A stretch of 64,000 nucleotides of DNA from Pseudomonadota bacterium (GCA_018241895.1 JAFECX010000238.1:2996-66995); one strand, 5' to 3'. Shown: positions 7,735-30,937, numbered from the stretch's first letter. Notes: generated from the letters alone by a model not told the origin. Numbers and translations: made by a program.

Positions 7735-7750
7735 GACTGCACACCCGCGC

Positions 7751-8674: not shown

Positions 8675-9513
8675 TGCTTGCGACTGCGCTGGACGAAACC
8701 GGGGCGACTGCGGTCGCCGTCCTCATGGCCATCTACAGCCGCGACGAACCTGCATCGTTCGAGCGCGCCATGGACTCCGTGTTGTCGCAGGAACTGCCGG
8801 CGGGATACGTCTCGAGGATCTATCTGGGCATCGACGGCCCGATCCCCGCCGCCCTGGAAGCGGCGCTGCAGCGGTACCGTGAACGGCTGCACTGCATCTC
8901 GCGCAGCGACGCCAACTGCGGCCTGGCGCAGACGCTCAACCGCCTGATACGGCTGCGCGAGGACGAGGCGTTGTTCTTCCGCATGGACGCCGACGATGCG
9001 TCCCTGCCCGGCCGGTTCTCGGCCCAGATCCGGTATCTGGAAGCGCACCCCGAGGTGGACATCCTGGGCACTGCCATCATCGAGGAGGGCGAAGACATGG
9101 CGCCGCGCGTGGTGCGCTTCGCCAGGAGCCACGAGGACGCCGCGGCCCGCATCGCGCGCCGCGTTCCGGTCGCACACCCCACCGTGTGCATGCGCGCGCG
9201 GGTGCTGGACAAGTTGCAGGGTTATCCGGAGCGGCGCGGCAACGAAGACATCGCGCTGTGGTTCGAGTGCCTGCGCGCCGGGCTGCGTTTCGACAATCTG
9301 GCCGAACCGTACCTGCGCTTCACCGTGAGCCCGGCATTCTGGAAGCGGCGCAGCTTGGAAAAGGCGTTCTCCGAGTGGCGCTGCTACATGCAAGGCATCT
9401 ATCGGCTCACGCCGTGGACGTGGCAGTACATCTACCCCATGGCGCGATTGGCACTGCGCCTGAGTCCGACCGCGCTCGTCAAACGGCTGTATGCCAGCAG
9501 CGCTCGCGGTTGA
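8674..9513 (+). CDS. Glycosyltransferase family 2 (AmsE-like)
   Basis: VLMAIYSRD, NCGLAQTLN, RMDADD, HPTV, EDIALW; TGATG overlap gives start 8674. Confidence 0.85.
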   Translation: MLATALDETGATAVAVLMAIYSRDEPASFERAMDSVLSQELPAGYVSRIYLGIDGPIPAALEAALQRYRERLHCISRSDANCGLAQTLNRLIRLREDEALFFRMDADDASLPGRFSAQIRYLEAHPEVDILGTAIIEEGEDMAPRVVRFARSHEDAAARIARRVPVAHPTVCMRARVLDKLQGYPERRGNEDIALWFECLRAGLRFDNLAEPYLRFTVSPAFWKRRSLEKAFSEWRCYMQGIYRLTPWTWQYIYPMARLALRLSPTALVKRLYASSARG

Positions 9514-9607
9514 CCTTCGTTGCCGAGCAGACCGGTTCGGTGCGCAATCGGATGCAACTGCGGCCCCACTACACTAAAGGGCACGAGGCCCGGGTGCCCG
9601 TGAAGAC

Positions 9608-10801
9608 ATGAGCGACACATTGGCCAGCGCGAATCCCGACCACGTCGAGCCGAGCTTCTCCGGACGAGACGCAGTCGCCGACGACCGTGCCGTGTTGCTG
9701 GAGTACGCGACCGCGCTGGCGCAGCGCTGGCGCCTGGTGCTGTCGTTGCCGATCGCCGCTGCACTCGTCGCGTTCGCTTGCACTTTCCTGATTCCACGCA
9801 CCTACACCGCGAGAACGACGCTGATACCGCCTCAGCCGCAGCAGGGCGCTGCGGCGTCCGCGCTCGCGTCGCTGGGGGCGTTGACAGGGCTTGGCGGCGG
9901 CTTGACGGGCTTCAAGACCACTGCGGATCAGTTCGTGTCGCTGATGCAGAGCGTCCAGGCCCAGGATCACCTCATCGACCGATTCAAGCTGATGGACGTC
10001 TACGAGGCCGACTATCGAGAGCAGGCACGCCGCAAGCTGGGACGCGACACGCGCATCACGCTCGGCAAGAAGGACGGATTCATCACCGTCGAGACGGACG
10101 CCGAGACGCCCCGCATGGCCGCCGACATGGCGAACGAGTACGTCGAGGAACTGCGGCGCCTGGCGAGCGGGCTGGCGCTGACCGAAGCCAAGCAACGGCG
10201 TGTTTTCTTCGAGGGCGAACTGCAAAAGACCCGCGTCCTGTTGACGCAGGCTCAGGCGAGGCTGCAGCAAAGCGGGGTCGGCGCCGGTGCCATCAAGGCC
10301 GAGCCCAGGGCCGCAGCCGAGGGCTACGCCAGCCTGCGCGCGTCTGCCACCGCTGCGGAAGTGCGGCTGCAGACCCTGCGCCGCTCGCTGGCCGAATCCG
10401 CGCCCGAGGTGCAGCAGCAGCGCGCGATGCTCGATGCCTTGCGCGTCGAACTCGCCAAGGTCGAGCAGACCGACAAGGGCGGCGCCGATGTCGACTACAT
10501 CGGACGCTACCGCGAATTCAAGTACCAGGAGACATTGTTCGATCTGCTCGCCAAGCAGTACGAGCTGGCCCGTATCGACGAGAGTCGCGAGCACGCCCTG
10601 GTCCAGGTGATCGACGTCGCCACGGCACCGGAGCGGCCGAGCGGCCCACGCCGGATCCTGATCGCTGCGGGGGCCGCGGCAGCCACGCTGCTGGCACTTT
10701 GCTTCTGGCTGCTGCTCGTCGGCTCGTGGCGCCAGATGACGTCGGATGACCCCCGCGTCGTCCAGGCTGCCAGGCTGCGTGCAGCGCTGCGCGATCGATA
10801 G
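9608..10801 (+). CDS. wzz: Wzz/GumC-like polysaccharide co-polymerase (chain-length determinant)
   Basis: N- and C-terminal TM helices flanking a coiled-coil region; IDVATAPERPSGPRR motif; no kinase domain. Confidence 0.8.
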   Translation: MSDTLASANPDHVEPSFSGRDAVADDRAVLLEYATALAQRWRLVLSLPIAAALVAFACTFLIPRTYTARTTLIPPQPQQGAAASALASLGALTGLGGGLTGFKTTADQFVSLMQSVQAQDHLIDRFKLMDVYEADYREQARRKLGRDTRITLGKKDGFITVETDAETPRMAADMANEYVEELRRLASGLALTEAKQRRVFFEGELQKTRVLLTQAQARLQQSGVGAGAIKAEPRAAAEGYASLRASATAAEVRLQTLRRSLAESAPEVQQQRAMLDALRVELAKVEQTDKGGADVDYIGRYREFKYQETLFDLLAKQYELARIDESREHALVQVIDVATAPERPSGPRRILIAAGAAAATLLALCFWLLLVGSWRQMTSDDPRVVQAARLRAALRDR

Positions 10802-10810
10802 CGCGGGCGG

Positions 10811-12283
10811 CTACCGGGCCGCTTCGTCGATACGACGAGCCGATGCGGCGTTCGCACAAGGCGGATAGTGCGACTGGACAAGCTGACGATAGCCGGCATC
10901 GGCCCGATCCTCGGGTCCTGCGCGGTTGTCGGTGAAGCGGCAGCCGACCCCGTCCTTTCTCAGCGCATCCGCGCCGAGGACATCATCGCCAAGCGGTGGA
11001 CGGCCGGAGTCGACCCACTCGGCCAGCGCATCGAACGCGGCGGCCATTTCCGTGGCCGTGAAGGCACAGTGGCCGGTGTCACGCACGAGGCGCACGCTCA
11101 GTCGGGCCGATTGCCCCGCCGTCTGCGCCCGCAGCGCGTAGCGACGCTGCATGTCCGCCGGCACCAACAGATCACCCAGGGTGTGCATGCTGATGACGGG
11201 CGCGGTCAGCCTGCCTTCGATCAACGGCACCCAACGCAGCCCGGTCGGCCACGCTGGATTGGCATCGGCGTCCGGCGCGATGCGCCAGATGGCGGCATTC
11301 AGCGCATCCGCCTGCGGATCAGGTTGGCCCGGCTCCTCGAATCGGTACACCACTGAGCGCGTGTCGATCACGTTGCGCGCCAGCACGCCGTCGATCGTCG
11401 GCTCGAAATTCATCAGCTTGAAAAGGAGTTGGTGATGCGACGGATTGCCCCAGCCCTCCTCGAAGAACGGGCGCGTGCCACCGGTCAGTTGCCTCGAGAG
11501 CGCGCGCAACCGCGCAATCTGTGCATCGGGTTCGGCACTGTCGGACAGGCTGTCCAGGACGCGCTGGCGCCACGCGGCGTTCTGTTGGCCGTAGACCGCG
11601 CTCGGATACGCTTGGGCCGGTGCGCCCAGAAGATGCTGCAGAGCCACCTGGTAGGCGGCGAGGTATTGGTACCAACCGAGATCCGTGACCGTCCCGCACA
11701 TGGCCAACGCGCCGTCGTAGCGCTGCCGGTTGACTGCGCGCTCGACCACCTCGGCTTCGACCGCCGCCGCTGCGACATGGCCCCCCATAGACATCCCGGC
11801 GATGTAAAGGCGGCGCGGCGCGGGCAGCGGCCGCCCATGGGCCGCGGCGATGTCCCGGAAGTGCGTGGCGAGCTTGTTGGTGTCTTCGATGGCCGCCTGC
11901 ACGTCGTACATGTTGCGCGTGTAGCTGGAGGCAGCCCAGGCGACCCCGCGTTCGAGCAGATGCCGCCGCAGTACCGGGTTCTCCAGGTACAGCACGGGGC
12001 CGTCCCAGTACGGCCGTGCCCACAGCAGCAGGGTGCCGTTCCAGTTCTTCGGCACCTCCACCCGGTAGGCGGCACCGTCGATCCGACCGGTCCAGCGATC
12101 GCTCTCGGCCGGAGCATCGGGCATTGCCGGCAACGACGATTCGACCGGAACGCCGTAGGTGCGACTGTCATGGACCCGCGTCTGCATGACGGGCGGGGAC
12201 GCCTGGAGCTCGGCGCGCCCGTCGCGGCCGCCTCCGCATGCCGCCAGACCAAGAATCGAGCAGCCCGCGAACCATCTCGTCAA
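10811..12283 (-). CDS. Predicted lipoprotein alpha/beta-hydrolase
   Basis: TTG start 12283 with AGGAGG upstream; lipobox LAAC; nucleophile elbow GMSMGG; HTLGD and GHCAF candidates for Asp/His. Confidence 0.7.
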   Translation of the reverse strand: MTRWFAGCSILGLAACGGGRDGRAELQASPPVMQTRVHDSRTYGVPVESSLPAMPDAPAESDRWTGRIDGAAYRVEVPKNWNGTLLLWARPYWDGPVLYLENPVLRRHLLERGVAWAASSYTRNMYDVQAAIEDTNKLATHFRDIAAAHGRPLPAPRRLYIAGMSMGGHVAAAAVEAEVVERAVNRQRYDGALAMCGTVTDLGWYQYLAAYQVALQHLLGAPAQAYPSAVYGQQNAAWRQRVLDSLSDSAEPDAQIARLRALSRQLTGGTRPFFEEGWGNPSHHQLLFKLMNFEPTIDGVLARNVIDTRSVVYRFEEPGQPDPQADALNAAIWRIAPDADANPAWPTGLRWVPLIEGRLTAPVISMHTLGDLLVPADMQRRYALRAQTAGQSARLSVRLVRDTGHCAFTATEMAAAFDALAEWVDSGRPPLGDDVLGADALRKDGVGCRFTDNRAGPEDRADAGYRQLVQSHYPPCANAASARRIDEAAR

Positions 12284-12312
12284 GGTACGCGTCGCTTCCT
12301 CCTGGTGAGGCC

Positions 12313-14084
<1,772 letters not shown>

Positions 14085-14088
<4 letters not shown>

Positions 14089-14708
14089 GGTGGAGCCATC
14101 TTAGCGGGATGCGAGAGCGTCACAGCAGCCGCAGGCGACGCCGCGGGCTCTACCGGTGCCGGCTCGCCCACCTTGATCTCGCGCGTGACAAACCACCAGC
14201 GCCCTTGAGCGTGGGCAAAGAGCGTGAAGACACCGGTACGTGCGATGTCGAAGCGCGCCTCCAGCCGTGCCGGCTCACCGGCCTTCGGGCTGGCCGAGGC
14301 GATCCACACCGCTGGAGGCTGCTGCGGCGCCACTTCGCCGCTGGTGCGCGCGGCCAGCGTCGGGGGCCGGATCGGCTGGGCAGCGCCAGCGGTTGTTGGA
14401 GCCTTGGCAACGAAGGCGCCACGCGCCAGCACGAGCGCAGTGGTACCTGGCAGCTCACTGTAGGCGCGCGCCGACACGCGTCCGGCCAGGCTGACGTCCG
14501 GCAACTGCAGCGCCAAATGGGTGCTTGGCTGTGCGGACTGGGCGCCCAGCAGCGCCACCAGGCGGTCGAGGTCGGGCGCCTGCTCGACCTCGAGCGGAGT
14601 GAACTGTGCATGCGCCCCGCCGCACAACAGCAGGGCCAGCATCCAGGGCAGCCGCCGACGACGGGCCGGGCGACGTGCGGTGTCGATGGCCTGGAACCGG
14701 AAGGGCAT
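14085..14708 (-). CDS. Exported SoxY-fold (Ig-like) protein lacking the GGCGG arm
   Basis: Signal peptide RRRRLPWMLALLLCGGAHA; LQLPDV...SELPGTT and EARFDIARTGVFTLFAHAQGRWWFVTREIKV align by eye with SoxY; stop overlaps gspE start (ATGA); start uncertain (14708 or 14642). Confidence 0.6.
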
Positions 14709-14726
14709 GTGTCGTCGGCAGCCAGC

Positions 14727-14753
14727 AGAAGAAAGGGGGGCCGCAGCCCCCCA
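14727..14753 (-). terminator. Rho-independent terminator after the S-layer-like gene
   Basis: Minus strand GGGGGGC-TGCG-GCCCCCC followed by TTTCTTCT. Confidence 0.8.
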
Positions 14754-14788
14754 TTCGATCAAGCATGAGAACCGGAAGAAGCCGCAGC

Positions 14789-16807
14789 TTACTTCTTGAT
14801 GCCGGTCTGCGCGTCCTGGTGGTCCGTGCTCTCGGTGCTGGAGGACTCGAGGTTCATGAAGTCCGCCCCCTGGGCGCCGGAGACCTCGGACAGCAGGCTC
14901 GTCTTGGCGTTGACCAGGTAGTTCTGCACGCGCAGCGTCGAGGCCGACTCGGACGAGATGCGCAGACGCGCGTTGGCGTTGGCGTAATCACCTTCGCTCG
15001 CATAGCCATCCTTGCCCGCGACACCCCTGGACGCCGAGACCTGGCCTTGGGTCGCCATCAGATTGGCGATCTCACGGTCGCTCAGGAAGCGCGCAGCCCG
15101 CGGCGGCAGATCGAACAGCTTCACGTAGCGGCCATAGTTGCCGTCGGCGCGGATGTACTGCGCCCAGACGTCGGCCGTCTGCGTCTCGCTGTTGTTGATC
15201 ACGCGCACGTAGGTACGCCAGTCGCTGTCCCACGGAAACTCGCTGTAGTTGCGCACATCGATCTTGATGCCGCCGCCCAGACCCGCCAGCGGCGCCGGGC
15301 AGGAGCTGTTGGACTGCTCCGCACCGATCGCGCCGATCGAGTGATTCTTGTACACCGTCGCCACCGCGTTCTGGAAGCGGCTCTGGGGAATCAGGGCCGA
15401 CCCGCTGACCTGCATGCAGACATAGGCCCGGTCGCTCGTGCCTGGCGCCGTGATGTTGAACGGCGTCGCAACGGCGCCGCTGGCCGCAACCGCATCGAGA
15501 AGGCCGTTGTCGCCAGGACTCCCCGTCGCGCCCAAGATCGTCGCGAGTTGCGCCAGGTTGAAGGCGGCCGTGGCCGTCTTGCCGTCCGGCGAGAAGCTCG
15601 TCGCACCCCAGACCGTCGTCGCTGCGGGGTCGCAGACAGGTGACGTCGACATGCCGATGGCCGCGCCCGTCGAGAAGCCGTTGGTCGCGTCGACCTTGAT
15701 CTGCAGCGAACCGACGTCGACGTTGCCGTTGATCTCGTTGGGAACGCCGTTCAGATCGTTCGGACCGAACTTGTAGTAGGGCGTCAGGAGGTTCGTGTCG
15801 AAGGCATCCAGCGCACGGTTGCTGAACTTGACCGTCCCAAGCGCCATGGTCTTGGTCGTCATGCCCGCGGCCCAGCCACCCGGCAACGTGAGCGCGTTGT
15901 TGGCCGTGAGCGGATCGGTGTTGCGATCCACCGCCACACCCTTCTCCATATGCACCGCCAGCGCGGTCTGGAACTGGATGTAGCCGCCGTTGAGCAGCGA
16001 CTGGATCGGCGCGCCCTGCGACTCGCCCTGCACGCCGTCGCCGGCGCCGATGTAGTTGCGCCCGGTCACGGTGATCTTGCGGATGCCTTCGCCGCAGCCG
16101 TCCTCGACGTTGCCGGTGTTGCCCGCGTCGGTACCGCTCAGCACGGGCACCGCGTTGACAGCGGTCGCCAGCTTGGTCACCAGCGCATAGTCGGCCGCGC
16201 CGGCAACGCCGACACCCGTCACGGAAGCCAGAGCGGTGTTCCAGGGGGCAGCGGCACCGTCGCCGGGATTCTGACCGTTGAAGACGAGTTGCAGGTCGCC
16301 GATGGCGATGGGCGCGGCGGTGTTGTTCACCAGCCGGAACTTGTAGCGGTACTTCTGCTTGACGGTGGCGTTGGCGGCGTCGGCACCCGCATCCAGCGCG
16401 GGCCAGACATCGACCGACATCAACACCAAGGCCGCCTTGTTCGGCGGCACGTTACCAACGTCGGCAACAGGCAGCACGGGCACGACGGCATTGCCGTTGT
16501 TGCGGCGGTAGGCGGCCACCGTCTTGTAGGTGGCCACTTGTGCATCCCACTCGGCCGCACCGTCGCCGCCCAGCACGAGCGTGACGTTGAAGTCCTGTGT
16601 GGAACCGGCGTTGGCCGCCGGGCCGTTGTCGAAGCTGTACGACACCGTGGGCGCACGCAGCGTCTGCGTGATGGCAACGTTGGCCGAGATGGCCTCGCGT
16701 GCCACGGTCAGGCCCGACTGGCTGATGTTGGCTGCCAGAGCCGAACCCGCGCCAGCGCACAGGGCTCCCGCCGCGACGGCAACCTGCAACTTCTTCATCG
16801 TCTTCAT
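14789..16807 (-). CDS. Large Sec-exported protein, putative S-layer/surface-array subunit and T2SS substrate
   Basis: Signal peptide MKKLQVAVAAGALCAGAGSALA (alternative start 16798); A/G/N/T/V-rich; no catalytic motif recognised; C-terminal YVRVINNSETQTADVWAQ segment; own terminator. CDS is secure; the function is inferred. Confidence 0.6.
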   Translation of the reverse strand: MKTMKKLQVAVAAGALCAGAGSALAANISQSGLTVAREAISANVAITQTLRAPTVSYSFDNGPAANAGSTQDFNVTLVLGGDGAAEWDAQVATYKTVAAYRRNNGNAVVPVLPVADVGNVPPNKAALVLMSVDVWPALDAGADAANATVKQKYRYKFRLVNNTAAPIAIGDLQLVFNGQNPGDGAAAPWNTALASVTGVGVAGAADYALVTKLATAVNAVPVLSGTDAGNTGNVEDGCGEGIRKITVTGRNYIGAGDGVQGESQGAPIQSLLNGGYIQFQTALAVHMEKGVAVDRNTDPLTANNALTLPGGWAAGMTTKTMALGTVKFSNRALDAFDTNLLTPYYKFGPNDLNGVPNEINGNVDVGSLQIKVDATNGFSTGAAIGMSTSPVCDPAATTVWGATSFSPDGKTATAAFNLAQLATILGATGSPGDNGLLDAVAASGAVATPFNITAPGTSDRAYVCMQVSGSALIPQSRFQNAVATVYKNHSIGAIGAEQSNSSCPAPLAGLGGGIKIDVRNYSEFPWDSDWRTYVRVINNSETQTADVWAQYIRADGNYGRYVKLFDLPPRAARFLSDREIANLMATQGQVSASRGVAGKDGYASEGDYANANARLRISSESASTLRVQNYLVNAKTSLLSEVSGAQGADFMNLESSSTESTDHQDAQTGIKK

Positions 16808-17353
16808 TGAGTAGAACCCTCATGCTTGGTTAAACGCGGCGCTCCCTCCAACGGTGAGCGCACCGGTACACACATCGCCCACGCCCGGCATCAGGCGCTG
16901 ACCCGATCAGTCTAAGCGGCCCACTGTGCGTCCCACAAGACGGGAACGCCTCCTCCAGGCAGCTTCGGCGATCAAGTCGCCCGGATTCTGGCACAGGGGC
17001 GCACACCCCCCGACCGCGGGGTGCCCATTTGGGTGCTGGATGCGCATTCTTTCGTGCGGATCGTTGCATTTTCCTCACAGCGCGCCACGGTGCGAGTGAC
17101 TGCACGCCACAGCAAGTGCATCGCGCCGCGGCGTCCAGGCGCTGCCGGGCCAGGACGGGGCCAACGGCGGTGCATTTGTGCGAGCGACGCAACGCTCCCG
17201 TGCCGCGGTTGCCGCCGGCCGCCCGCGTGCGCATTCCATCTGCGAAGCCTATGGGCGCAAGGTCGCCCGCGCCCCGGCGCCCCATTGCCGGCATCCCCGC
17301 TCGCTACACTGCGTGCCGGGGCAATGCAGCAAGGACGCCCGACGGCGGCTGGG

Positions 17354-18550
17354 ATGCAGGAATTCGAATACGTTGCGCTGGACGCGCGGGGCAGACGACA
17401 GCGCGCCATGCTCGTCGCTGGCAGCGAGGCGCTGGCACTGGCGCAGATCCAGCAGCGCGGACTCACGGTGGTCGCGCTCACGCCGCATCGTTCGAGCGCC
17501 GGCGGCCGTGGCGCACAAAGGCAGGCCGCGATGAGCGCCGAGCGGCTGGGCGCGCTGCTGCAGGAGTTGGCCATGCTGGTGGAGGCGGGCGTGCCGCTGG
17601 CCGAAGCGGTGGCCACGCTGGCGGCCAGCCAGCCGCCCGGGCATGCGCTGGGCCAGTTGCTGGCGCGGCTGCGCGGCGGCGAGGCCTTCTCGGAGGCACT
17701 GGCGGGCTCGGGCCTGCGGCTGCCCGTGTTCGTGCTGCAACTGGTGCGCGCCGGCGAGGCCACGGGCGAGTTGCCACGCGCCCTGCGTGCGGCGGCCGAG
17801 CATCTCGAGGCCGAGGCGCAGTTCGCGCGCGAGGCGCGCAACGCGCTGCTGTACCCGGCAGTGCTGGTGATGAGCGGAGTGCTCGCCACGCTGGTGATGT
17901 TCGTCTTCGTGGTGCCCAAGTTCGCGGGCATCCTCTCCAACCCGAAGGCCGACTTGCCGCTGGTGAGCCGGTGGGTGCTCGGGCTGGGCTTGTGGCTCAC
18001 GCAGCACCAGGTGGTGGTCGGGCTGGCGCTGGCCGGCATGGTGGCACTTGGCGCCAGCCTCGCCGGGCGGCCCCGGGTGCGCGAAGCGGCATGGGAGCTG
18101 GCGACGCGCACGCCGGTGCTCGCCCGCTGGACCTGGCATGCGGAGATGGCGCGCTGGAGTTCGCTGCTCGCGGTGCTGCTCAACAGCCGCGTGCCGCTGC
18201 TCACCGCGCTGGCGCAGGCCAACGAAACCCTGCGGCGGCGTTCGCTGCGGCTGCGCGCGCAGCTGGTGCTGGCCGACGTGCGCGGCGGCAAGTCGCTGAG
18301 CCAAGCGCTGTCGGACCACGCTGTGCTGGACGCGGCCGGGCTCAACCTGCTGCGGGTGGGCGAGCGTGCCGGCACGCTCGGCCAGACGACCGCCGCGCTC
18401 GCGCGCACGCACACCCAGCACAGCCAGCAGCGGCTCAAACGGTTGCTGGTGCTGCTGGAACCCGTGACCATCCTGCTGATCTCAGTGGTGCTCGGGGGCA
18501 TCATGATTTCGGTCATGCTCGCCATCACGAGCTTGACCAACGTGCTATGA
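17354..18550 (+). CDS. gspF: T2SS inner-membrane platform protein F
   Basis: MQEFEYVALDARG, GEATGEL, ALLYPAVL, FVVPKF, GERAGTL, LLEPVTI. Confidence 0.95.
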   Translation: MQEFEYVALDARGRRQRAMLVAGSEALALAQIQQRGLTVVALTPHRSSAGGRGAQRQAAMSAERLGALLQELAMLVEAGVPLAEAVATLAASQPPGHALGQLLARLRGGEAFSEALAGSGLRLPVFVLQLVRAGEATGELPRALRAAAEHLEAEAQFAREARNALLYPAVLVMSGVLATLVMFVFVVPKFAGILSNPKADLPLVSRWVLGLGLWLTQHQVVVGLALAGMVALGASLAGRPRVREAAWELATRTPVLARWTWHAEMARWSSLLAVLLNSRVPLLTALAQANETLRRRSLRLRAQLVLADVRGGKSLSQALSDHAVLDAAGLNLLRVGERAGTLGQTTAALARTHTQHSQQRLKRLLVLLEPVTILLISVVLGGIMISVMLAITSLTNVL

Positions 18551-18630
18551 CGCCACGATCGCGCCCCGGGCGCTCGGGCACAATTCCGCCGCGATGAAAT
18601 CGCCGCGCCGCGTACGCGACGCGGCACGGA

Positions 18631-19092
18631 GTGACAGGACGAGTGCGCACGCCGAACCGACCCCGATTGCATGCCGGCCACCACTGGCGCGGCTTCACGT
18701 TGCTCGAAATGCTGGTGGTGATGGTGATCATCGGGCTGCTGGCCAGCTTGGTGGGCCCGCGCATCTTCGGCAAGGTCGACAGCTCCAAGATTCAGACGGC
18801 GCAAACGCAGGCCAAGATGCTCAAGAGCGCCATCGCCATCATGCAACTAGACATCGGCGGCACGCCGCCTGCGGACCAGGGGCTGCGCTGGCTCGTCGAG
18901 CGACCGACGGTGGAGCCGCAGGCTTCGCAGTGGAAGGGCCCCTATCTGGACGGCGCCCTGCCCGACGACCCCTGGGGCCACCCGTACATCCTCAAGGTGC
19001 CCGGCATCGGCGGACAGCCGTACTCGGTGATCTCCTACGGGCCCGACGGCAAGGAAGGCGGCGAGGGCGCGGGCGCGGACATCGTGCAATGA
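18631..19092 (+). CDS. gspG: T2SS major pseudopilin G
   Basis: GFTLLEMLVV prepilin motif; WKGPYL, DPWGHPY, SYGPDGKEGGEG..ADI. Confidence 0.95.
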   Translation: MTGRVRTPNRPRLHAGHHWRGFTLLEMLVVMVIIGLLASLVGPRIFGKVDSSKIQTAQTQAKMLKSAIAIMQLDIGGTPPADQGLRWLVERPTVEPQASQWKGPYLDGALPDDPWGHPYILKVPGIGGQPYSVISYGPDGKEGGEGAGADIVQ

Positions 19093-19535
19093 TGCGGCAT
19101 GCCCAGCGCCAGGCGGCCGGCTTCACGCTGGTCGAGATGCTGGTCGTAATGGTGATCCTAGGTCTGCTCGCCGGGGTGGCGTTGCCCGCCATGCAGCGCT
19201 GGCACGACGCTGTGCAGGCGCGCTCCGAGGGCGCGGCGATGGTGCAGGCGGTGCGCGCAGGCGCCTTTGCCGCTGCCGCCAACCGGCTGGGCGTGCGGCT
19301 GGACGCACGCTCGTTCGACGGCAGCCAGGCAGGCTCCGACGCGGCGCCGAGCCTGCCCGTGCCCCTGCCTGCCGGCTGGCGGCTCGAGAAGATCGAGCCG
19401 GCCCTGCTGTTGGGCAGCGGGCTGTGCAGCGGCGGCCACGCCGTTCTTCGAACGCCCGGCGGGGAGTTGATGCGCCTGGCCGTGTCCGAAGGCGACTGCA
19501 CGGTCAGCCTGCAGTCGGAGCCGGCGGCGCCGTGA
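19089..19535 (+). CDS. gspH: T2SS minor pseudopilin H
   Basis: GFTLVEMLVV; ATGA overlap with gspG. Confidence 0.8.
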   Translation: MMRHAQRQAAGFTLVEMLVVMVILGLLAGVALPAMQRWHDAVQARSEGAAMVQAVRAGAFAAAANRLGVRLDARSFDGSQAGSDAAPSLPVPLPAGWRLEKIEPALLLGSGLCSGGHAVLRTPGGELMRLAVSEGDCTVSLQSEPAAP

Positions 19536-19975
19536 GATCGGCCCGGCGCAGCACGCGCGGGCTCAGCATGATCGAGGTGCTGGCCGCGATGGTGATCTTC
19601 AGCACCGGCGCGACAGTACTGTTCGGATGGATCGGTCAGACCAGCGAGCGGCTGGCGCGGCTGGCGGGAGAGCAACGCGAACTGTTCACCGACATGGTCG
19701 TGCTGGAGTACATGAAGACGGTCAACCCGATGCTCGAGCCGGCGGGTGAGATACGCCTGAGCGACGGTGTGCTCCTGCGCTGGCAATCTGAGCGGCTTCC
19801 GGGCGATGACACGGTACGCGGCCCAGGCTCGCTCTACGAGCTCGGGCTGTATCGCGTGAAGGTGCGGGTGAGCGCGCCGCAGCAGGGCGTGCGCGAGTCC
19901 AGCGTGGAGCTTGCGGGCTGGCGGCAGGTGCGCCAGCCCTCGTCGCAAGGACCGATCCGCGAGGCCGGCACGTGA
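19532..19975 (+). CDS. gspI: T2SS minor pseudopilin I
   Basis: RGLSMIEVLAAM; GTGA overlap. Confidence 0.8.
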   Translation: MRSARRSTRGLSMIEVLAAMVIFSTGATVLFGWIGQTSERLARLAGEQRELFTDMVVLEYMKTVNPMLEPAGEIRLSDGVLLRWQSERLPGDDTVRGPGSLYELGLYRVKVRVSAPQQGVRESSVELAGWRQVRQPSSQGPIREAGT

Positions 19976-20598
19976 GCACACCGAAGCGGCGCAGGCACGG
20001 GCTCACACTGGTGGAGTTGCTGGTGTCGCTCACGATCATGGGCTTCGTGATGACGCTCGTCTCCCAGGCCGTGTATCAGACCGGCCAGATCGTGCGGGTG
20101 GCCGACGAGTCGGTGGTCCATCTGGCCGCACGCTGGAGCCGAGGGTGGGCGGTGACGGCGCTAGTGGCGAATCTGGCAGCACCGCGCGAAGGGAAGCTGC
20201 TGCCGATGACCGGTTCCAGCGCCAAGCTGAACGGCTATTCGACCGCGCCCGTGGACGCGCCGGATTCGGGCGTGCAGCCGTTCAGCCTGCAGTTGCGCGG
20301 CGATGACGCCGGCGGCAGCGAACTCGTGTACGTTCCGGCGCGACCGGGCGCACAGCCCATCATCGTCGCGCACTGGACGTCGCCGGTGGAGTTCAGGTAT
20401 CGCGCGGCGGACGGGCAACGCAGCGATCGCTGGCCGACGTGGACGCGCAGTGGTCGAGACACGGTGTTGCTGCCCACGGCGATCGAGCTTACGGAGGCCG
20501 GCGGCGACGTCCTGGTGATGGCTTTCGAGGTGCCGGCCGCCGGTGCGCGCCAGGCCGAAGAGAGTAGCGGCCCGTTTCGCACTGACGACAGCCCGTGA
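19972..20598 (+). CDS. gspJ: T2SS minor pseudopilin J
   Basis: HGLTLVELLVSL; operon position. Confidence 0.8.
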   Translation: MSTPKRRRHGLTLVELLVSLTIMGFVMTLVSQAVYQTGQIVRVADESVVHLAARWSRGWAVTALVANLAAPREGKLLPMTGSSAKLNGYSTAPVDAPDSGVQPFSLQLRGDDAGGSELVYVPARPGAQPIIVAHWTSPVEFRYRAADGQRSDRWPTWTRSGRDTVLLPTAIELTEAGGDVLVMAFEVPAAGARQAEESSGPFRTDDSP

Positions 20599-21650
20599 AC
20601 GCATCGAAACGCGGCAGCAGCCGCTACAGGCCGCGCGCGCGGCCCGTCGGCGGGTTTGCTCTGGTCATCGTGCTGTGGGTGCTCGCCGGGCTGACGGTGG
20701 TCGCGGTCTCGATCGCCGCCACCGTGCAGAGCAACAGCCAGAGCGTGAGGCTGCTGCGCGACCGGCTGCGCGCCGAACGCGCCTTCCTCTCTACGGGCAG
20801 CCGGCTGAAGGTGATCGGCGCGACATCGATCGCGCTCCCCTACTCCTACCTGAGCGCACGCGGGCAGGTGTTCCTGGACGGACGCGTATCGCGCGTAAAT
20901 GCCGACGAAACCGTGGTGCTGCAGGACGGCCGCGGGCTGATGAGCCTCGAGCGGCCGGAGGGCGCGGCGTGGCAGCGCTTCCTGGTGAGCTGCGGCGCCA
21001 CGGCGGACGAGGTCGAGCGGCTGCAGGATGCACTCGCCGACTACGAGGACGGCGACTCGTTGCGCCGCTTGCATGGCGCAGAGCGCGACGACTATCGCGA
21101 CACCGCGCTGCCGGCGCCGCGCAACGCACCTGTGCTCACGCGCGACGAGCTGTGGCGTGTGCTAGGCTGGCCGGGCCTGCGCCGCCGCTGGGATGCCGCC
21201 GGCTGCGGCGAGAACGTGGTGGCCGGCACGGCGCAGGGATTCAATGCGAACACAGCACCGCTGACCGTACTGCTTGCTCATGGCTGGGACGAGATGCAGG
21301 CGCGCGCATTGATCGACGCACGACGCGCCGGATTGCCGCTGCTGACGGGCGGGCTGCTCGACATCGGTGGCGGCCCCGCCCCGATGTTGCGCGACAGCAG
21401 CCTGCCAGGCGACCGCATCCGGGTCCGCCACCGGTTGGCATCGCTAGAATGGGCGCTTCAGTACGATCTGCAGTTCACTCCGAGCGATCCGGGCGGCCCT
21501 TGGCGCATGCACGACGTGCAGGTGGTGCGATCGGCGCCACAGCAGCCCGAACCCCCGGGAGCCTCGGATTTCCCTCCGCTCGACTACGTGGCCTCGCAAC
21601 AGGATAGGGTCCGGTTGAATGCTGTACCCACTTCACCTATTGGCCGCTGA
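20595..21650 (+). CDS. gspK: T2SS minor pseudopilin K
   Basis: GFALVIVLWVL (no Glu5, typical of K), LADYEDGD, GAERDDY, PRNAP, NANTAP. Confidence 0.9.
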   Translation: MNASKRGSSRYRPRARPVGGFALVIVLWVLAGLTVVAVSIAATVQSNSQSVRLLRDRLRAERAFLSTGSRLKVIGATSIALPYSYLSARGQVFLDGRVSRVNADETVVLQDGRGLMSLERPEGAAWQRFLVSCGATADEVERLQDALADYEDGDSLRRLHGAERDDYRDTALPAPRNAPVLTRDELWRVLGWPGLRRRWDAAGCGENVVAGTAQGFNANTAPLTVLLAHGWDEMQARALIDARRAGLPLLTGGLLDIGGGPAPMLRDSSLPGDRIRVRHRLASLEWALQYDLQFTPSDPGGPWRMHDVQVVRSAPQQPEPPGASDFPPLDYVASQQDRVRLNAVPTSPIGR

Positions 21651-22677
21651 CGGGAAGGACGGCTGGCAGGTCGTCGACACCGGGCACAGAAGCTGGCGAC
21701 GCACGTTGCTCGTGCCGCGGCAATTGTGCTTGTTCGAATCGATACCGTGCGGCAGCGTGCACTGGCATGAGTTGACGGGCTTTGCGCAGCTCCAGGCGCG
21801 CAGGCTTTCCCCGTTCGAGCGCACCGGAGCGTCGGCATTGCGTCGCGCGGGCCGCCTGCATCTGTGGCTGTGGGACGCGGCGGAGGTCGACGCGATGCTT
21901 GCCGCCCAGACGAAGGATGCCACCTCCGTGCAGCGTGCCGAGGCGCTGTATCTGCCTTGGCCCGTCGCCGGCAGCAAGCTGCGGCGCACCACGCAGATCG
22001 AAGAGGAAGTGCATGTGGACGAAGCGGGCGCATTGCTCGACAGCGAACCGACGGGTCACGCGCCTGGTCTGGATCTGTCGGTGCTGCTGCCGCGCGCGGC
22101 CGGACATGACTGGCTGGGCGGCTCCCTGGATGCCGCTGCGGTGCGCCCGGCCTGGGCGGGCACGGCGGCCCTGCTGAACACGGTCGGCATGACCGCGGCC
22201 ATGGCCATGCTGGTCTACCTGGGTTATGAAGGCGGTCGGCTGTGGGGCACGCTGAACACGGCCGAGTTGCTGGAGGAGCGCGTTGCACGGCAGGCAGCCA
22301 CGCGTGGCGAGTCCGCCCGGATCGAACGGGCGGCCTTGGCCGACGCGCAGTGGATCGATGCGTATCGGCGGGCCACGGCGCAACTCGACGTCGCCGCCGC
22401 GCTCGATGCCTTGCGCGCGCCGATGGAGGCGTACGGCGTCGCGATCCGGGAACTGGATGCCGCGGGCACCGAGTTGCGGCTGACGCTGGTGAGTGCAGGC
22501 GGCGAGATCCGCATTGCCGAGTTGCTACAGGCCTTGCGGACCGTCGCCGGCGTGCGCGGCGCGAGCCTGCATCAGCACAAGGAACTGGAGTGGGCGGTCT
22601 ACATCGTCGATATGCCCGGTTTCGCTTCTGGTGCGCGCCTGCGACAGGGATCGGAGACCCAGCGTGCCGCGCATTGA
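21619..22677 (+). CDS. gspL: T2SS protein L-like
   Basis: Large cytoplasmic N-domain, single TM, periplasmic domain; position after gspK; sequence divergent. Confidence 0.6.
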   Translation: MLYPLHLLAADGKDGWQVVDTGHRSWRRTLLVPRQLCLFESIPCGSVHWHELTGFAQLQARRLSPFERTGASALRRAGRLHLWLWDAAEVDAMLAAQTKDATSVQRAEALYLPWPVAGSKLRRTTQIEEEVHVDEAGALLDSEPTGHAPGLDLSVLLPRAAGHDWLGGSLDAAAVRPAWAGTAALLNTVGMTAAMAMLVYLGYEGGRLWGTLNTAELLEERVARQAATRGESARIERAALADAQWIDAYRRATAQLDVAAALDALRAPMEAYGVAIRELDAAGTELRLTLVSAGGEIRIAELLQALRTVAGVRGASLHQHKELEWAVYIVDMPGFASGARLRQGSETQRAAH

Positions 22678-23257
22678 CGCAGCGCGCAGCAGCGGCACTC
22701 TGCCGGGCTTACTGGCGATCGCCGTGGCCGTACTGCTGTGGTGGCAGGCGGACCAGTTACATTCGCGACGTATCCTCGCTGGGGAGCGTGTCGCAGCCGC
22801 AAGGCAATTACTGCGTGCCGAGCGCACGACGGCCGATCCGGCCAGTCTTCGAACACGTCGCCTACAGTTGCAGACCGAGCGCCGGGCGCTCGAGCAGCGG
22901 CTGGTCGAGCACGCCGACATGGGGTTGCTACGCGCGCAGCTCTACTACGATCTGCGCGAGCGCTGCTACGCTGTGAAGCTGAATTGCCTGATCCGGCTGG
23001 CCGAGCTCGAGGCGGCGGACAGGCCCAGGGGCGCCGCATCAGACACCGCCAGCGACGATTCGATGGCCAGGCTGGGAGTGCGCCGACTGCGGGCGACGAT
23101 CTCCGGCCTGCTGGGCGAACAGGAACTTCAGGATGTGTTGGCTGCCTTTTCGGCGGACGAGCAGCGGGTGTGGCGCTTTAACCGCGTGCAACTCAAGACG
23201 CGGGCGTTCGAAATCGATATCGAACGGCTGGTTCAGCCTGCTAGTGGGCGGCAATGA
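22664..23257 (+). CDS. gspM: T2SS protein M-like
   Basis: N-terminal TM, coiled coil, small C-domain; position after gspL; GTG start inferred. Confidence 0.55.
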   Translation: MPRIDAARSSGTLPGLLAIAVAVLLWWQADQLHSRRILAGERVAAARQLLRAERTTADPASLRTRRLQLQTERRALEQRLVEHADMGLLRAQLYYDLRERCYAVKLNCLIRLAELEAADRPRGAASDTASDDSMARLGVRRLRATISGLLGEQELQDVLAAFSADEQRVWRFNRVQLKTRAFEIDIERLVQPASGRQ

Positions 23258-23805
23258 CCGCTGGCGTGCGACAGCCAAACGTGCCATCCGATCCCGTGCG
23301 TCCACGCGGTCTGCGGCACGGCTTGCAACTCGGGTTGCTGGGCGTGGCGCTGGGGTCCGCCAGTATCGCCACGGGTTATTTTCTGGCCACGCGCGAAGGC
23401 GAGACCCAGCCCGCTGCGACTTCAGCCGCCGCAGCGGCCAGCAGCCCGACTGCCCTCGTTGCCGAACGGTCCTCCGCGGGCCACGACGAGGTTCCGGCGG
23501 CGACGGCGCACGAACGCAACGAACGGGACACTCTGCGCTGGCCCCTGTGGGCATACCAGTTGATGGACCCGCTGCCGGTCAGGGAGCCGCCGTTGACGCC
23601 GGTGCCGTGGCGTCTGCTGGGGGCTGCATTCTTCGACGGCAAGTGGCACGCTATCGTGCAGCGCCAGGGCGTGGCGCAGCCGGACTACTACAAGACCGGC
23701 GATAAGCTGCCGGGCGGTTATCTCATCCAGGAAATCACGCAGGAAGACCTGACGTTGCGCGCAGGCCACCGCGAGATCGTGCTCTCCTACATCGGCTCGA
23801 GGTGA
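23254..23805 (+). CDS. GspC/XpsN/PilP-like T2SS protein
   Basis: N-terminal TM, Ala-rich linker, C-terminal YKTGDKLPGGYLIQEITQEDLTL resembling the GspC-HR/PilP domain; directly before the secretin. Confidence 0.6.
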   Translation: MTAGVRQPNVPSDPVRPRGLRHGLQLGLLGVALGSASIATGYFLATREGETQPAATSAAAAASSPTALVAERSSAGHDEVPAATAHERNERDTLRWPLWAYQLMDPLPVREPPLTPVPWRLLGAAFFDGKWHAIVQRQGVAQPDYYKTGDKLPGGYLIQEITQEDLTLRAGHREIVLSYIGSR

Positions 23806-26270
23806 AGTCGTTGCGCCTTTCTTCCCCTGTCGCATTGGCCGCGCTGGCGCTGCTGAGCGCCTGCCAGACACCCCTGAAACCGCTGCCCGGACCGCTGCAG
23901 TACGAGCACTCGCCAGCCGTCGAGGGCAACATCCTGACCGGCGAACCGGCCCCCACCGGCACGCAGATTTCGACGGTGCCGCAGCCGCCCCGCGCAGCGC
24001 CTGCGGCAAGCGCCGCGCCCCATCCGGTTGCGGCAGCGTCTGCGCCTGCGAGCATCGAACCCGTGTCGATCGCGATCGAGCAGACGCCGCTGCCGACCTT
24101 CATCCAGATCCTGTACGGCAGCGTGCTGAAGGTGCCCTATACCATCGACCCGGCGGTGATGTCACGGACTGACCCGGTCACGTTCAAGAGCTCGCAACCG
24201 CTACCGCGCGGGCGCATCCAACAACTGGCGCGCAGCCTGCTGCAGAGCTACGGATTGACGGTGGCGGATTTCGATGGGCTGGTGCGCATCGCACCCGTGG
24301 GCAGCCAGCAGGCGCCATCGTCGATTCCCGTGCTGCGTTCGGCCGAATCACCGATGCCGCCCGGTGACCAGCAGCCGGTGTTCCAGTACGTCGAGCTGCA
24401 GGCGGTCAAGGTCTCGGACATGACGCAATGGCTCAAGACGATGGTGGGCTCGCGCGTCACCCTGCAGGAGGATGCGGCACGCAACTCCTTCCTGCTGTCC
24501 GGCAACGCGCGCGACGTGCGCGCCGCACTGGATCTGATCGACGCGATGGACCAGCCGCGCCTGCGCGGGCGCTCGGCGCGCCGCTTCTCGCCCGTCAACA
24601 TCGGTGCGCAAGACCTGGCGATGAGGCTCAGCGAGGTGCTCGGGGGGCAAGGCTACGCGGTCTCCGTGAACTCGTCGAACACAGCCGCCATCTTCATCTT
24701 GCCGGTGCCGTCGATCAACAGCATCATTGTCTTCACGCACAACGACCAGGTGATGGCGCATGTGCAACGCTGGGTGCTGGAACTGGATCGGCCAAGCCGC
24801 AACGCGGCCTCGAACAGCCCTCTGTTCACGTACCCGGTCAAGTTCGCCGACGCGCAGGAACTCGCGCGAACGCTCGGCGAATTGCTCGGCGGAGTGGTCT
24901 CCGCGCCGGCCAGCACTGCGGGCGGCACCGGCCAGACCGGTGCGCCCCGCGTGAGCGGTGGGCGCGTCGTCGTGAACAACGCCACGAATACCCTCATCAT
25001 CCGCGGCACCGGTCCCGACGAGCAGTTGCAGATCCGGCAGTTGCTGCGAGAGCTCGATCGGCCCACCAAGTCCGCGATGATCGAGGTCGTGGTGGCCGAA
25101 CTGTCCATGGGGGAGCTCGAGCGCCTGGGGGTGCAGTGGTCGTACCTCGATCCCTTCAATCAGCCCGACAGCCGCTCGGCGCAGATCGGAGGCGGCGGTT
25201 TGTCGATCTCGTACGCGAGCAATGCGCGGCAACTGCTCGCGGCGATCAACGCGCTGGCCTCCGAGAACAAGGGACGCGTACTGTCGAACCCGAAGGTCAT
25301 GGCACGTAACGGCGAGACCGCCACGATCACCGTCGGCCGCGAAGTGCCGGTGCTGACGGGCCAACAGAGCACACTCACGGGCTCGTCTCCGATCAATGGC
25401 GGCGGCACGGGCATCGCCACCGGTGTGATCCAGACGATCCAATACCGTAACACGGGGGTGAATCTGCGGGTGAGACCGGTGATCAACTCCGGCAATCGGC
25501 TCGACCTGGAGGTGAGCCAGGAGGTCAGCAGCGTCGCGGCGGGCGAAACCGGCATCGGGTCGAACCCGATCATCTCGAACCGCAAGATCGAGACCAAGCT
25601 GTCGCTGCGTGACGGATCGACCGTCCTGCTCGGAGGGCTGATCTCGCGCGATACGTCCACCACCAATGCGGGCGTGCCGCTGCTCAAGGACATCCCGGGA
25701 CTGGGAGCGTTGTTCAGGAACCGCCAGGATTCGATCAATCAGACCGAACTGCTGGTCATGATCACGCCGTACGTGATCAATGATGATTTCGAGTCCGAGG
25801 AAATCACCGCCGCGCTGCACAAGACCTTCGGCGATTGGGCCGCCGACATCCCGGTGGCCCGCAAGGTGCCGACGCCGGAGGGCGCGGCCAACGAAGTGAG
25901 GGACGAACCGCTGAAGCATTCCACGTCGGCGACGCCGGATCGAGATGCGGCGTTGCCGCAGACGAAGCCGAGCGAGCCAACCTCCCTCCAGGTGCCAGGC
26001 GCCGTGCGCAAGGACAAGTCGCTGCCCGACGAGACCGGCGTCGAGATGAGCAAGCCGGTTGCGGCTCCGGGCGTTGCTGGATCGCAAGCCACGGTACCTC
26101 CGCGCGTCACGGCAACGCCTGCCGCCGCCCCAGCGAGTGCGCCCGAGGAGTTGTCGCCGCAACCCGCGCCAAGTGGCCAGAGCATCGACACACCTGTCGG
26201 GCCAGGCCGACCGGTAACCGATCCAAAGGTTCTGGAAGAGCTCAGGCGACTGATGAAGGAAGGCAGGTAG
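23802..26270 (+). CDS. gspD: T2SS secretin D, lipoprotein type, with long Pro/Ala-rich C-terminal tail
   Basis: Lipobox LSAC; IEVVVAE, LSNPKVMARNGETATITVG, YRNTGVNLRVRP, GVPLLKDIPGLGALF, TELLVMITPYVI. Confidence 0.95.
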   Translation: MKSLRLSSPVALAALALLSACQTPLKPLPGPLQYEHSPAVEGNILTGEPAPTGTQISTVPQPPRAAPAASAAPHPVAAASAPASIEPVSIAIEQTPLPTFIQILYGSVLKVPYTIDPAVMSRTDPVTFKSSQPLPRGRIQQLARSLLQSYGLTVADFDGLVRIAPVGSQQAPSSIPVLRSAESPMPPGDQQPVFQYVELQAVKVSDMTQWLKTMVGSRVTLQEDAARNSFLLSGNARDVRAALDLIDAMDQPRLRGRSARRFSPVNIGAQDLAMRLSEVLGGQGYAVSVNSSNTAAIFILPVPSINSIIVFTHNDQVMAHVQRWVLELDRPSRNAASNSPLFTYPVKFADAQELARTLGELLGGVVSAPASTAGGTGQTGAPRVSGGRVVVNNATNTLIIRGTGPDEQLQIRQLLRELDRPTKSAMIEVVVAELSMGELERLGVQWSYLDPFNQPDSRSAQIGGGGLSISYASNARQLLAAINALASENKGRVLSNPKVMARNGETATITVGREVPVLTGQQSTLTGSSPINGGGTGIATGVIQTIQYRNTGVNLRVRPVINSGNRLDLEVSQEVSSVAAGETGIGSNPIISNRKIETKLSLRDGSTVLLGGLISRDTSTTNAGVPLLKDIPGLGALFRNRQDSINQTELLVMITPYVINDDFESEEITAALHKTFGDWAADIPVARKVPTPEGAANEVRDEPLKHSTSATPDRDAALPQTKPSEPTSLQVPGAVRKDKSLPDETGVEMSKPVAAPGVAGSQATVPPRVTATPAAAPASAPEELSPQPAPSGQSIDTPVGPGRPVTDPKVLEELRRLMKEGR

Positions 26271-26508: not shown

Positions 26509-27837
26509 ATGAAAGTCACCGTCATCGGCACCGGCTACGTCGGCCTGGTCACCGGCACCTGCCTGGCCGAAATGGGCAACCACGTCGTGTGCCTGGACGT
26601 GGACAGGAAGAAGATCGAGCTGCTCGAGGCCGGCGGCATCCCGATCCACGAGCCGGGGCTCGAGCCGCTGGTGCGGCGCAACGCGGCGGCCGGGCGGCTC
26701 GCGTTCACCACCGACGTGGCCGCGGCGGTGGCGCACGGCACGCTGCAGTTCATCGGCGTGGGCACGCCGCCGGGCGAAGACGGCTCGGCCGATTTGCAGT
26801 ACGTGCTGGCCGCCGCCGGCAGCATCGGCCGCCACATGACCGACTACAAGGTCGTGGTCGACAAGAGCACGGTGCCGGTGGGCACGGCCGACAAGGTGCG
26901 CACCACCATCGCCGAGGCGCTGGCCGCGCGCGGCATGCCGGAGCTGCCGTTCGCGGTGGTTGCCAACCCCGAGTTCCTGAAGGAAGGCGCCGCGGTCGAG
27001 GACTGCATGAAGCCCGACCGCATCATCGTCGGCGCCGACGACGAGCGCGCCATCTTGCTGATGCGTGCGCTGTACGCGCCCTTCATGCGCAACAACGAGC
27101 GGCTGCAGCTGATGGATACGCGCAGCGCCGAGCTCACCAAGTACGCGGCCAACGCGATGCTGGCCACGCGCATCAGCTTCATGAACGAGCTGGCGCGGCT
27201 GGCCGAGCGCGTGGGCGCCGACATCGAGCTCGTGCGCCGCGGCATCGGCAGCGACCCGCGCATCGGCACGCACTTCCTCTACCCCGGCACCGGCTACGGT
27301 GGCAGCTGCTTTCCGAAGGACGTGCAGGCGCTGATCCGCACCGGCAGCGAGAACGGCATCGCGCTCGAGGTGCTGCAGGCGGTGCAAGCGGCCAACGAGC
27401 GCCAGAAGCACGTGCTGGTGGACAAGATCGTGGCGCGCTTCGGCGAAGACCTCACGGGCCGCACCTTCGCGCTGTGGGGCCTGGCCTTCAAGCCCAACAC
27501 CGACGACATGCGCGAGGCACCCAGCCGCGTCATCGTGGCCGAGCTGGCGCGCCGCGGCGCCGCCCTGCGCGCCTACGACCCGGTGGCGATGCCCGAGGCC
27601 AAGAAGGTGCTGCAAGGCACGCCGCGGCTCACCTTCGTGGCCGAGGCGCAGCAGGCGCTCGAGGGCGCCGACGCCCTGGTGCTGGTGACCGAGTGGCGCG
27701 AGTTCCGCAACCCCGACTTCGAGGCGATGAAGGCGGCACTGAAGCAGCCGCTCGTCTTCGACGGGCGCAACCAGTACGAGCCGGCGCTGCTGCAGTCGCT
27801 CGGCTTCGAGTACCGGTGCATCGGGCGGCCGGGCTGA
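26509..27837 (+). CDS. ugd: UDP-glucose 6-dehydrogenase
   Basis: [50 protein letters not shown]. Confidence 0.95.
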
Positions 27838-27884
27838 GGGCGCGGCCCGGATGCCGATGCGGCAAGCGCAGCCATCGTCCCCGC

Positions 27885-28558: not shown

Positions 28559-28597
28559 ATCATCATTGCTATAAAGCGCATGCGATGCAGTCATTTT

Positions 28598-28625: not shown

Positions 28626-28632
28626 TTTTTAA

Positions 28633-30930: not shown

Positions 30931-30937
30931 CGTAACA

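Follow-up and report, generated by a model that had tools for sequence, protein, structure and literature searches.

In Aeromonas, a dedicated Sps/Aps type II secretion system (T2SS) is essential for export of the surface-layer (S-layer) proteins VapA/AhsA, and the layer is anchored on O-antigen lipopolysaccharide (cited in PMC10765051 and PMC7821379). Slr4 of Pseudoalteromonas tunicata is an abundant S-layer protein of about 59 kDa with a predicted RsaA-like β-helix, and has been detected only in marine metagenomes; its gene lies beside a conserved T2SS cluster, and dedicated export was inferred (PMC7821379). For the NpdA S-layer, a 12-gene gsp cluster is located beside npdA in many Beta- and Gammaproteobacteria (PMC10765051). 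The system closest to the one reported here is an operon of Piscinibacter sakaiensis, which has been called an S-layer secretion operon with support from random barcode transposon-site sequencing (bioRxiv 10.1101/2025.11.11.687616). Here, a locus of the same layout is described in a 64,000-nt stretch of DNA from a Pseudomonadota bacterium, a betaproteobacterium of wastewater (GCA_018241895.1 JAFECX010000238.1:2996-66995; the whole stretch is referred to as the window). It includes a divergent T2SS gene set (12313-26270), a gene for a 672-aa exported protein that is a candidate S-layer subunit, and a small gene for an exported protein with a SoxY fold.

In P. sakaiensis, conjugation selection led to an increase (false discovery rate <5%) for each of the genes 1_1821 (GspD), 1825, 1827, 1829 (GspG), 1831 ('S-layer protein'), 1832 and 1833 (GspE), one phenotype is common to transposon mutants affected in the secretin, the pseudopilins, the ATPase, the small gene or the large protein, and the large protein was called a remote Slr4 homolog (bioRxiv 10.1101/2025.11.11.687616). 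The operon runs GspD ... GspG, GspF, large exported protein, small exported protein, GspE, as in the window. The N-terminal domain of the 672-aa protein is homologous to 1_1831 (hhalign 98.8%), 1_1832 is a homolog of the SoxY-like protein with 37% identity, and the N-termini of the GspE proteins are alike. However, P. sakaiensis belongs to another genus and the comparison of the large proteins covers 399 aa, the N-terminal domain. Further, the small gene was not recognised as SoxY-like in the preprint, and no lattice was shown there.

Genes of the window were assigned from the open reading frame (ORF) listing together with Pfam and NCBIfam matches (Table 1). On the plus strand the order is gspF-G-H-I-J-K-L-M-C-D, and gspE is on the minus strand, behind the genes for the 672-aa protein and the small exported protein. 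N_methyl motifs were found by Pfam in four pseudopilin genes, and gspH, gspI and gspJ are kept in related loci. The gspL-like and gspM-like genes are also kept in relatives; their products gave no Pfam or PDB match, and their sequences provided no GspL or GspM identity. The gspC-like protein is without a PDZ domain. The profile match of gspF begins at ORF residue 112-115, at MQEFEYVALD, which places the start at about 17354. No prepilin peptidase (GspO/PilD) is encoded in the block; the remainder of the genome was not searched for one. An earlier note on this DNA had claimed this gspF-D order with gspE on the opposite strand, an exported 672-aa protein gene followed by a terminator, and translational coupling of the small gene to gspE. 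All of these were borne out, the last by a stop/start overlap. Nearly all of its gene descriptions stood, but several starts lie later than those of the longest ORFs (gspF about 17354, small gene 14708, lipoprotein 12283).

The GspD, GspE and GspF proteins of the window scored 331.5, 510.6 and 223.9 bits, as compared with NCBIfam equivalog cut-offs of 351, 630 and 424 bits, respectively. All recognisable T2SS components are under the cut-offs, and the machine is therefore divergent. The match of GspE to the NCBIfam profile spans only positions 94-486. Residues 1-190 of GspE show no match to the canonical GspE N1 domain and are conserved in P. sakaiensis 1_1833; this non-canonical N-terminus may point to another mode of contact with the divergent GspL-like protein. 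The genome (3.98 Mb in 249 contigs) includes three secretins. On contig C131, adjacent genes encode GspD, GspE and GspF with scores of 564, 673 and 461 bits, all over the cut-offs, and a gspG homolog is present on contig C229. Given these canonical GspD/E/F proteins on C131 and the divergent copies in the window, the window system is extra to a housekeeping T2SS, as the earlier note had proposed for a private T2SS.

The mature form of the 672-aa protein has 647 aa, a mass of 66.8 kDa and a pI of 5.0. Its content of Ala, Gly, Val, Thr, Asn and Ser is high, and Cys makes up 0.6%; the four Cys residues of the mature protein are invariant or nearly so across the family. The protein has no Pfam, NCBIfam or PDB sequence match, and searching the PDB sequences with the protein and with its family profile gave nothing useful. 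Only 41 close homologs, all of 640-680 aa, were found among 5.8 billion clustered proteins, and those named by their source are all labelled 'hypothetical protein'. A profile search of 1.84 billion representatives gave 139 matches, with sharing at its widest over the C-terminal ~230 residues. Pairwise identity within the family is 0.66-0.76 at both ends and 0.26-0.49 in the middle. In an AlphaFold2 (AF2) model with a predicted local distance difference test score (pLDDT) of 76.8, the protein forms a chain of β-sandwich domains, and the C-terminal tail is disordered, yet highly conserved. The acidic pI, the composition, the conserved ends with a variable middle and the all-β model are S-layer-like traits and were counted for the S-layer reading. 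A Foldseek search of the PDB with the model gave generic adhesin-like β-sandwiches only, at template modelling (TM) scores of ≤0.17, and RsaA was absent among the top 50 fold matches listed.

NpdA was considered as the identity of the 672-aa protein and rejected, as comparison of a 28-sequence profile with seven NpdA orthologs from the supplement of PMC10765051 gave an hhalign probability of 2.7%. The two systems are alike in that the NpdA subunit gene adjoins a dedicated T2SS (gsp1 in Delftia, Paracidovorax and other Comamonadaceae) with a second T2SS in the genome, and in that both proteins have a Sec signal peptide and no known domains. In contrast to the window, gspE heads a co-directional gspE-F-G...D-npdA array in five NpdA loci from the same bacterial family; no SoxY-like gene was found in these five loci by hmmsearch at E values up to 10, and their T2SS proteins are only 28-48% identical to those of the window. 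The Aeromonas VapA/AhsA system, likened to the window by its description, differs in being gammaproteobacterial and in having no SoxY-like component described. Slr4 is likewise set apart by its description: the 672-aa family is modelled as β-sandwiches and occurs in sludge and freshwater Betaproteobacteria.

In a sample of 201 genomes of the bacterial family, about one per genus, the 672-aa family was present in 9 and NpdA in 25, and none of the nine carried both. There was no NpdA match in the genome of the window, and a second genome of its genus was without the 672-aa family. Some genomes of the family (G055, G026, G157 and G118) have 3-7 NpdA paralogs, several of them in tandem (for example, G026:C1:3193757-3200352 and G157:C61:93322-98358), which hints at S-layer gene families or variation systems.

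The small gene has its real start at the ATG at 14708, and its TGA overlaps the ATG of gspE (ccATGAgc). Weak matches to Pfam SoxY (PF13501) were found in 7 of 20 members of the small-protein family (best E value 3.7e-4), and the family profile matched the SoxY structure PDB 2nnc over almost its whole length (E value 2.8e-7). In a Foldseek search with the AF2 model (pLDDT 82.5), the top 14 PDB matches were SoxY, with target-normalised TM scores of 0.71-0.81. Given the agreement of the Pfam, profile and structural matches, the small protein has a SoxY fold; the SoxY/Ig-like fold put forward in the earlier note for an accessory gene therefore holds, and the gene is conserved.

The small protein shares with SoxY (PDB 2nnc and 2oxg) the Ig-like fold and motifs around PD(V/I)A..G and RE(V/I)KV. 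However, the GGCGG cysteine arm is absent in all 20 family members, which end in ...RE(V/I)KVG followed by a Cys-free Pro/Ala tail, and the mature small protein has no Cys at all. It further differs from SoxY in a Pro-rich insert and in the pairing of its gene with a secretion ATPase gene in place of a SoxZ partner gene; neither soxZ nor other sox genes were found in the window. Judged from its sequence and the genes nearby, the small protein is not a functional SoxY, because the arm is missing in every member and sox genes are missing from the vicinity. A genuine soxY (ending in KVTLGGCGG) and soxZ are located beside cytochrome c genes on contig C80 (about 13063-13924, minus strand); hence, apart from the T2SS-linked paralog, the organism possesses a normal Sox system. 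No SoxZ-like segment that might be a partner for the SoxY-like protein was found in the 672-aa protein (hhalign 0.1%). A link of the conserved tail of the large protein (..DQDAQTGIKK) with the SoxY-like gene was considered and was imperfect, as loci L024 and L032 have the tail and no SoxY-like gene in the locus. In the literature searched, no paper appears to connect SoxY-like proteins with T2SS function, as judged from titles and abstracts; a search combining SoxY and type II secretion gave coincidental co-mentions only.

In at least 12 loci, a SoxY-like homolog directly precedes gspE. Two distant loci are among them: in L030 the large gene lies ahead of gspF, and in L059 it converges with gspD, yet the pairing with gspE is kept in both. 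Strong genomic matches to the SoxY-like protein occur only beside the large-protein gene. The whole layout, in which D-C-M-L-K-J-I-H-G-F faces away from the genes for the large protein, the small protein and GspE, recurs in metagenomic contigs and in Inhella, Pelomonas, Roseateles, Mitsuaria and several metagenome-assembled genomes (MAGs) of Burkholderiales, where the large protein has 36-66% identity, in agreement with the synteny across Burkholderiales that had been anticipated. The arrangement persists down to about 32-45% substrate identity. In farther relatives (Hydrogenophaga, Sulfuricella, Sulfuritalea, Ramlibacter, a Rhodocyclaceae MAG and others), similarity lies mostly in the C-terminal domain; on contigs that are long enough, most of them are again beside a T2SS of this lineage, sometimes with a different gene order. 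In one related locus, L016 (GCA_054403835.1), rve transposase fragments follow the large-protein gene where gspE and the SoxY-like gene would be expected, and a number of T2SS genes were called short; L017, with an identical large protein, has intact T2SS genes. The state of L016 is due either to decay of the locus after insertion sequence insertion or to assembly errors.

The control region between the 672-aa gene and gspF is 546 bp long. In three runs, RNA contigs stop at 16960-16969, ~155 nt before the ATG of the 672-aa gene, which implies an mRNA leader of that length; a σ70 consensus scan of the control region found nothing. Downstream of the gene, a near-identical G6-7C/loop/GC6-7 hairpin with a T-run was found after the homolog in each of the 13 related loci that were folded, and in the window high-depth RNA contigs end at the terminator, at 14778 (X7) and 14764 (X10). 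Many runs from activated sludge, wastewater and biofilm contain the 672-aa gene, and its expression was estimated as contig word depth in four wastewater metatranscriptomes (X7, X10, X17 and X19). The depth of the large-protein gene was 8-10 in X7, 18 in X10, 245-640 in X17 and 259-426 in X19, as compared with 0, 0-3.4, 3.6-16 and 0.6-15, respectively, for gspF-D, a difference of 20-60-fold. The values for gspE were intermediate (30-34 in X17 and 14-27 in X19). The locus of elongation factor Tu (EF-Tu) and ribosomal proteins reached only 13-64 in X17 and X19, a calibration for which long specific pieces alone were used, as it is confounded by fragments of other organisms. At the RNA level, the 672-aa gene is at or above the EF-Tu and ribosomal-protein pieces, as would be expected of an abundant S-layer subunit.

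It is probable, on balance, that the locus is a dedicated export module whose substrate is an abundant surface protein, probably an S-layer subunit, with a glycan link. The gene identities, the SoxY fold, the synteny, the second T2SS and the high RNA level were computed here, and the shared phenotype of the P. sakaiensis mutants is taken from the literature. From these we infer export of the 672-aa protein by this T2SS, formation of a lattice, the link to glycan and a role for the SoxY-fold protein. The 672-aa protein would be made in very large amounts, with its own promoter, the ~155-nt leader and a strong terminator, would cross the inner membrane via Sec and would fold in the periplasm. 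The dedicated divergent T2SS would then push the folded protein through the GspD secretin, and the exported protein would most likely form an S-layer around the cell, with glycan from the flanking clusters as its anchor or decoration. The gspE gene would have moved from the gspF-D operon to sit with the SoxY-fold gene behind the substrate terminator, where read-through could tie the supply of the motor to transcription of the substrate; the gene layout suggests such co-regulation. The SoxY-fold protein would be a periplasmic, low-copy accessory of this T2SS lineage that has lost the sulfur-carrying arm, and would most likely serve as adaptor or holdase, either to present the subunit to the PDZ-less GspC or to prevent its self-assembly in the periplasm.

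A more specific proposal takes the Cys-less SoxY-fold protein to be derived from a sulfur carrier and to be indispensable, in the periplasm, to a T2SS lineage of its own, in which it would bring a self-assembling surface subunit to the PDZ-less GspC/GspD as a substrate-specific adaptor or holdase. Its fixed pairing with gspE would couple motor supply to substrate synthesis. This is advanced tentatively, as a plausible claim with somewhat less than an even chance of being right.

Several observations weigh against the reading as an S-layer export module with a SoxY-fold accessory. Lattice formation, surface localisation and secretion dependence have been reported for no member of the 672-aa family, a literature search having found no paper that reports a lattice, and the fold search (TM ≤0.17) does not mark the protein as an S-layer protein. 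The P. sakaiensis phenotype is indirect, being recovery in conjugation, and the log2 fold change was 1.0 for the large-protein mutant as compared with 2.4-3.9 for the T2SS mutants (bioRxiv 10.1101/2025.11.11.687616). Insertions in 1_1832 could be polar on gspE. In addition, some distant relatives (L024, L025, L032 and L057) combine the large protein with a T2SS in a locus that, over the part retrieved, lacks a SoxY-like gene. As a measure of expression, contig word depth is poor and rough; the direction of the expression difference agrees across three studies.

The alternative that survives best keeps export of the 672-aa protein by this dedicated T2SS but takes the protein for an abundant matrix protein or adhesin, loosely attached or shed, which aids floc and biofilm formation in activated sludge, and not for a paracrystalline S-layer. 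The organism occurs in activated-sludge, biofilm and wastewater runs, among PDB folds the protein comes closest to adhesin domains of biofilm-associated and collagen-binding types, a lattice is on record for no family member, and Slr4 is itself a major matrix component (PMC7821379). However, these fold matches are weak, and the composition, the pattern of conserved ends and variable middle, the monocistronic, very high expression and the private T2SS are as in the lattice-forming VapA, Slr4 and NpdA systems. This alternative is therefore considered unlikely, with perhaps one chance in a few.

It is much less probable that the neighbourhood is coincidental or only regulatory, with the T2SS serving hydrolases (the adjacent lipoprotein among them) or other proteins, and the 672-aa protein reaching the surface by another route. 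T2SS substrates are not predictable from sequence, and a putative lipoprotein hydrolase does follow gspE in this genome. However, the large protein stays with this T2SS lineage in at least 15 loci with several gene orders while the hydrolase does so in none, the large-protein and T2SS mutants of P. sakaiensis share a phenotype, and the canonical T2SS is already present for general secretion. Least tenable is the view that the SoxY-fold gene, for all its homology to SoxY, is a leftover or an independent sulfur-metabolism gene with no role in secretion, given the lost GGCGG arm and absence of Cys in the mature part, the absence of soxZ or another sox gene nearby with genuine soxYZ on C80, its position just before gspE in 12 or more loci, including some with an otherwise different gene order, the restriction of strong matches to the vicinity of the large-protein gene, and the behaviour of P. 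sakaiensis homolog mutants, which is that of T2SS mutants.

Table 1. Features of the secretion locus and its surroundings, in coordinates of the window.
Feature	Coordinates	Strand	Basis or content
Left glycan cluster, Wzy-dependent type	1-10801	+	Two DegT, acetyltransferase, CapD/PseB-like dehydratase, three GT2, EpsG, Wzz
Lipoprotein with GMSMG motif, downstream of gspE	10811-12283	-	TTG start 12283, AGGAGG Shine-Dalgarno, lipobox LAAC
gspE-type secretion ATPase	12313-14088	-	Pfam T2SSE 5.5e-128; NCBIfam GspE
207-aa exported SoxY-fold protein, accessory gene paired with gspE	14708-14085	-	Signal peptide; profile; AF2
Intrinsic terminator directly 3' of large-protein gene	14752-14735	-	GGGGGGC-TGCG-GCCCCCC-TTTCTT
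672-aa Sec-exported all-β protein, candidate S-layer subunit/T2SS substrate	14789-16807	-	Signal peptide, sequence
Divergent control region with long 5' leader of large-protein mRNA	16808-17353		Sequence, RNA contig ends
gspF, inner-membrane platform	17354 (approx.)-18550	+	Pfam T2SSF 7.3e-43; NCBIfam
gspG, major pseudopilin	18631-19092	+	Pfam T2SSG 1.8e-30 plus N_methyl
gspH, minor pseudopilin	19089-19439	+	N_methyl motif; named by order
gspI, minor pseudopilin	19424-19975	+	N_methyl motif; named by order
gspJ, minor pseudopilin	19972-20598	+	N_methyl motif; named by order
gspK, minor pseudopilin	20595-21650	+	Pfam T2SSK_1st 6e-9; NCBIfam GspK 9e-10
gspL-like bitopic membrane protein	21619-22677	+	Position and one transmembrane segment only
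gspM-like bitopic membrane protein	about 22664-23257	+	Position and one transmembrane segment only
gspC-like, short (transmembrane segment and HR domain)	23254-23805	+	Weak T2SSC, E 0.002; GspC_delta, E 0.0045
gspD secretin	23802-26270	+	Pfam Secretin 1.6e-46; Secretin_N x3; NCBIfam GspD
Right glycan genes, first part	within 26509-42395		UDP-sugar dehydrogenase, WecB-like epimerase
Right glycan genes, following block	within 26509-42395		PglF-like dehydratase, Bac_transf, DegT, methyltransferase, Wzx

The gene downstream of gspE had been described as that of a lipoprotein hydrolase. The lipobox identifies it as a lipoprotein, but its sole hydrolase match is weak (Abhydrolase_11, E value 0.009) and is gone for the trimmed protein at an E value of 0.001. 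A lipoprotein hydrolase as a part of the system was rejected, since there is no counterpart in about 20 related loci, and on this comparison the lipoprotein is probably outside the secretion system.

The glycan clusters noted earlier on both sides of the block are present, and glycan genes flank or interrupt the homologous modules in L012, L014, L057 and L059. In L057, a distant relative, the large-protein gene and gspE are separated by genes for a TylF-like methyltransferase, a GT2 glycosyltransferase, a second methyltransferase and a 478-aa protein (12175-16775), so that this module has glycan-modification genes within it. In the right glycan region of the window, genes for a PIN-domain protein (a toxin of the toxin-antitoxin type) and a DUF2442 protein lie among the sugar-nucleotide genes (27885-28304 and 30270-30695, both on the minus strand).

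The GC content at third codon positions (GC3) is 0.80-0.88 in the left glycan cluster and T2SS region (1-26270), as compared with 0.90-0.97 in 26500-64000, and the overall GC content is 0.65-0.70 and 0.70-0.75, respectively. This contrast in composition suggests that the surface-structure region may have been acquired or exchanged horizontally. The patchy distribution and the lower GC3 fit an exchangeable surface-structure module.

The earlier note had read the locus as a betaproteobacterial surface-array locus and regarded this as new. The reading is partly supported, by the private T2SS, the conserved arrangement, the S-layer-like substrate with its high transcription and the SoxY-fold accessory gene, and the lattice itself is a proposal. 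Support does not extend to the lipoprotein or the novelty of the concept, since the NpdA loci (PMC10765051) and the P. sakaiensis operon (bioRxiv 10.1101/2025.11.11.687616) had already been published. The kind of system is thus known, and its closest homolog already carries the label of an S-layer secretion operon. What is new is the Cys-less SoxY-fold accessory gene, in a fixed pairing with a relocated gspE behind the substrate terminator, and the finding that, within one bacterial family, the 672-aa and NpdA modules represent unrelated alternatives.

To our knowledge, few substrate-specific helpers have been described for T2SSs, and the SoxY-fold gene paired with gspE therefore provides a concrete, testable candidate. 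The 672-aa family would be a third subunit family, unrelated, in the same bacterial family as NpdA, the two never occurring together in the sample. The pattern of S-layer or abundant surface proteins with a private T2SS, met in Aeromonas, Pseudoalteromonas and Comamonadaceae, is extended to Sphaerotilaceae-type Betaproteobacteria, which are common in activated sludge, and to the degrader of poly(ethylene terephthalate) P. sakaiensis, in which the layer seems to hinder conjugation.

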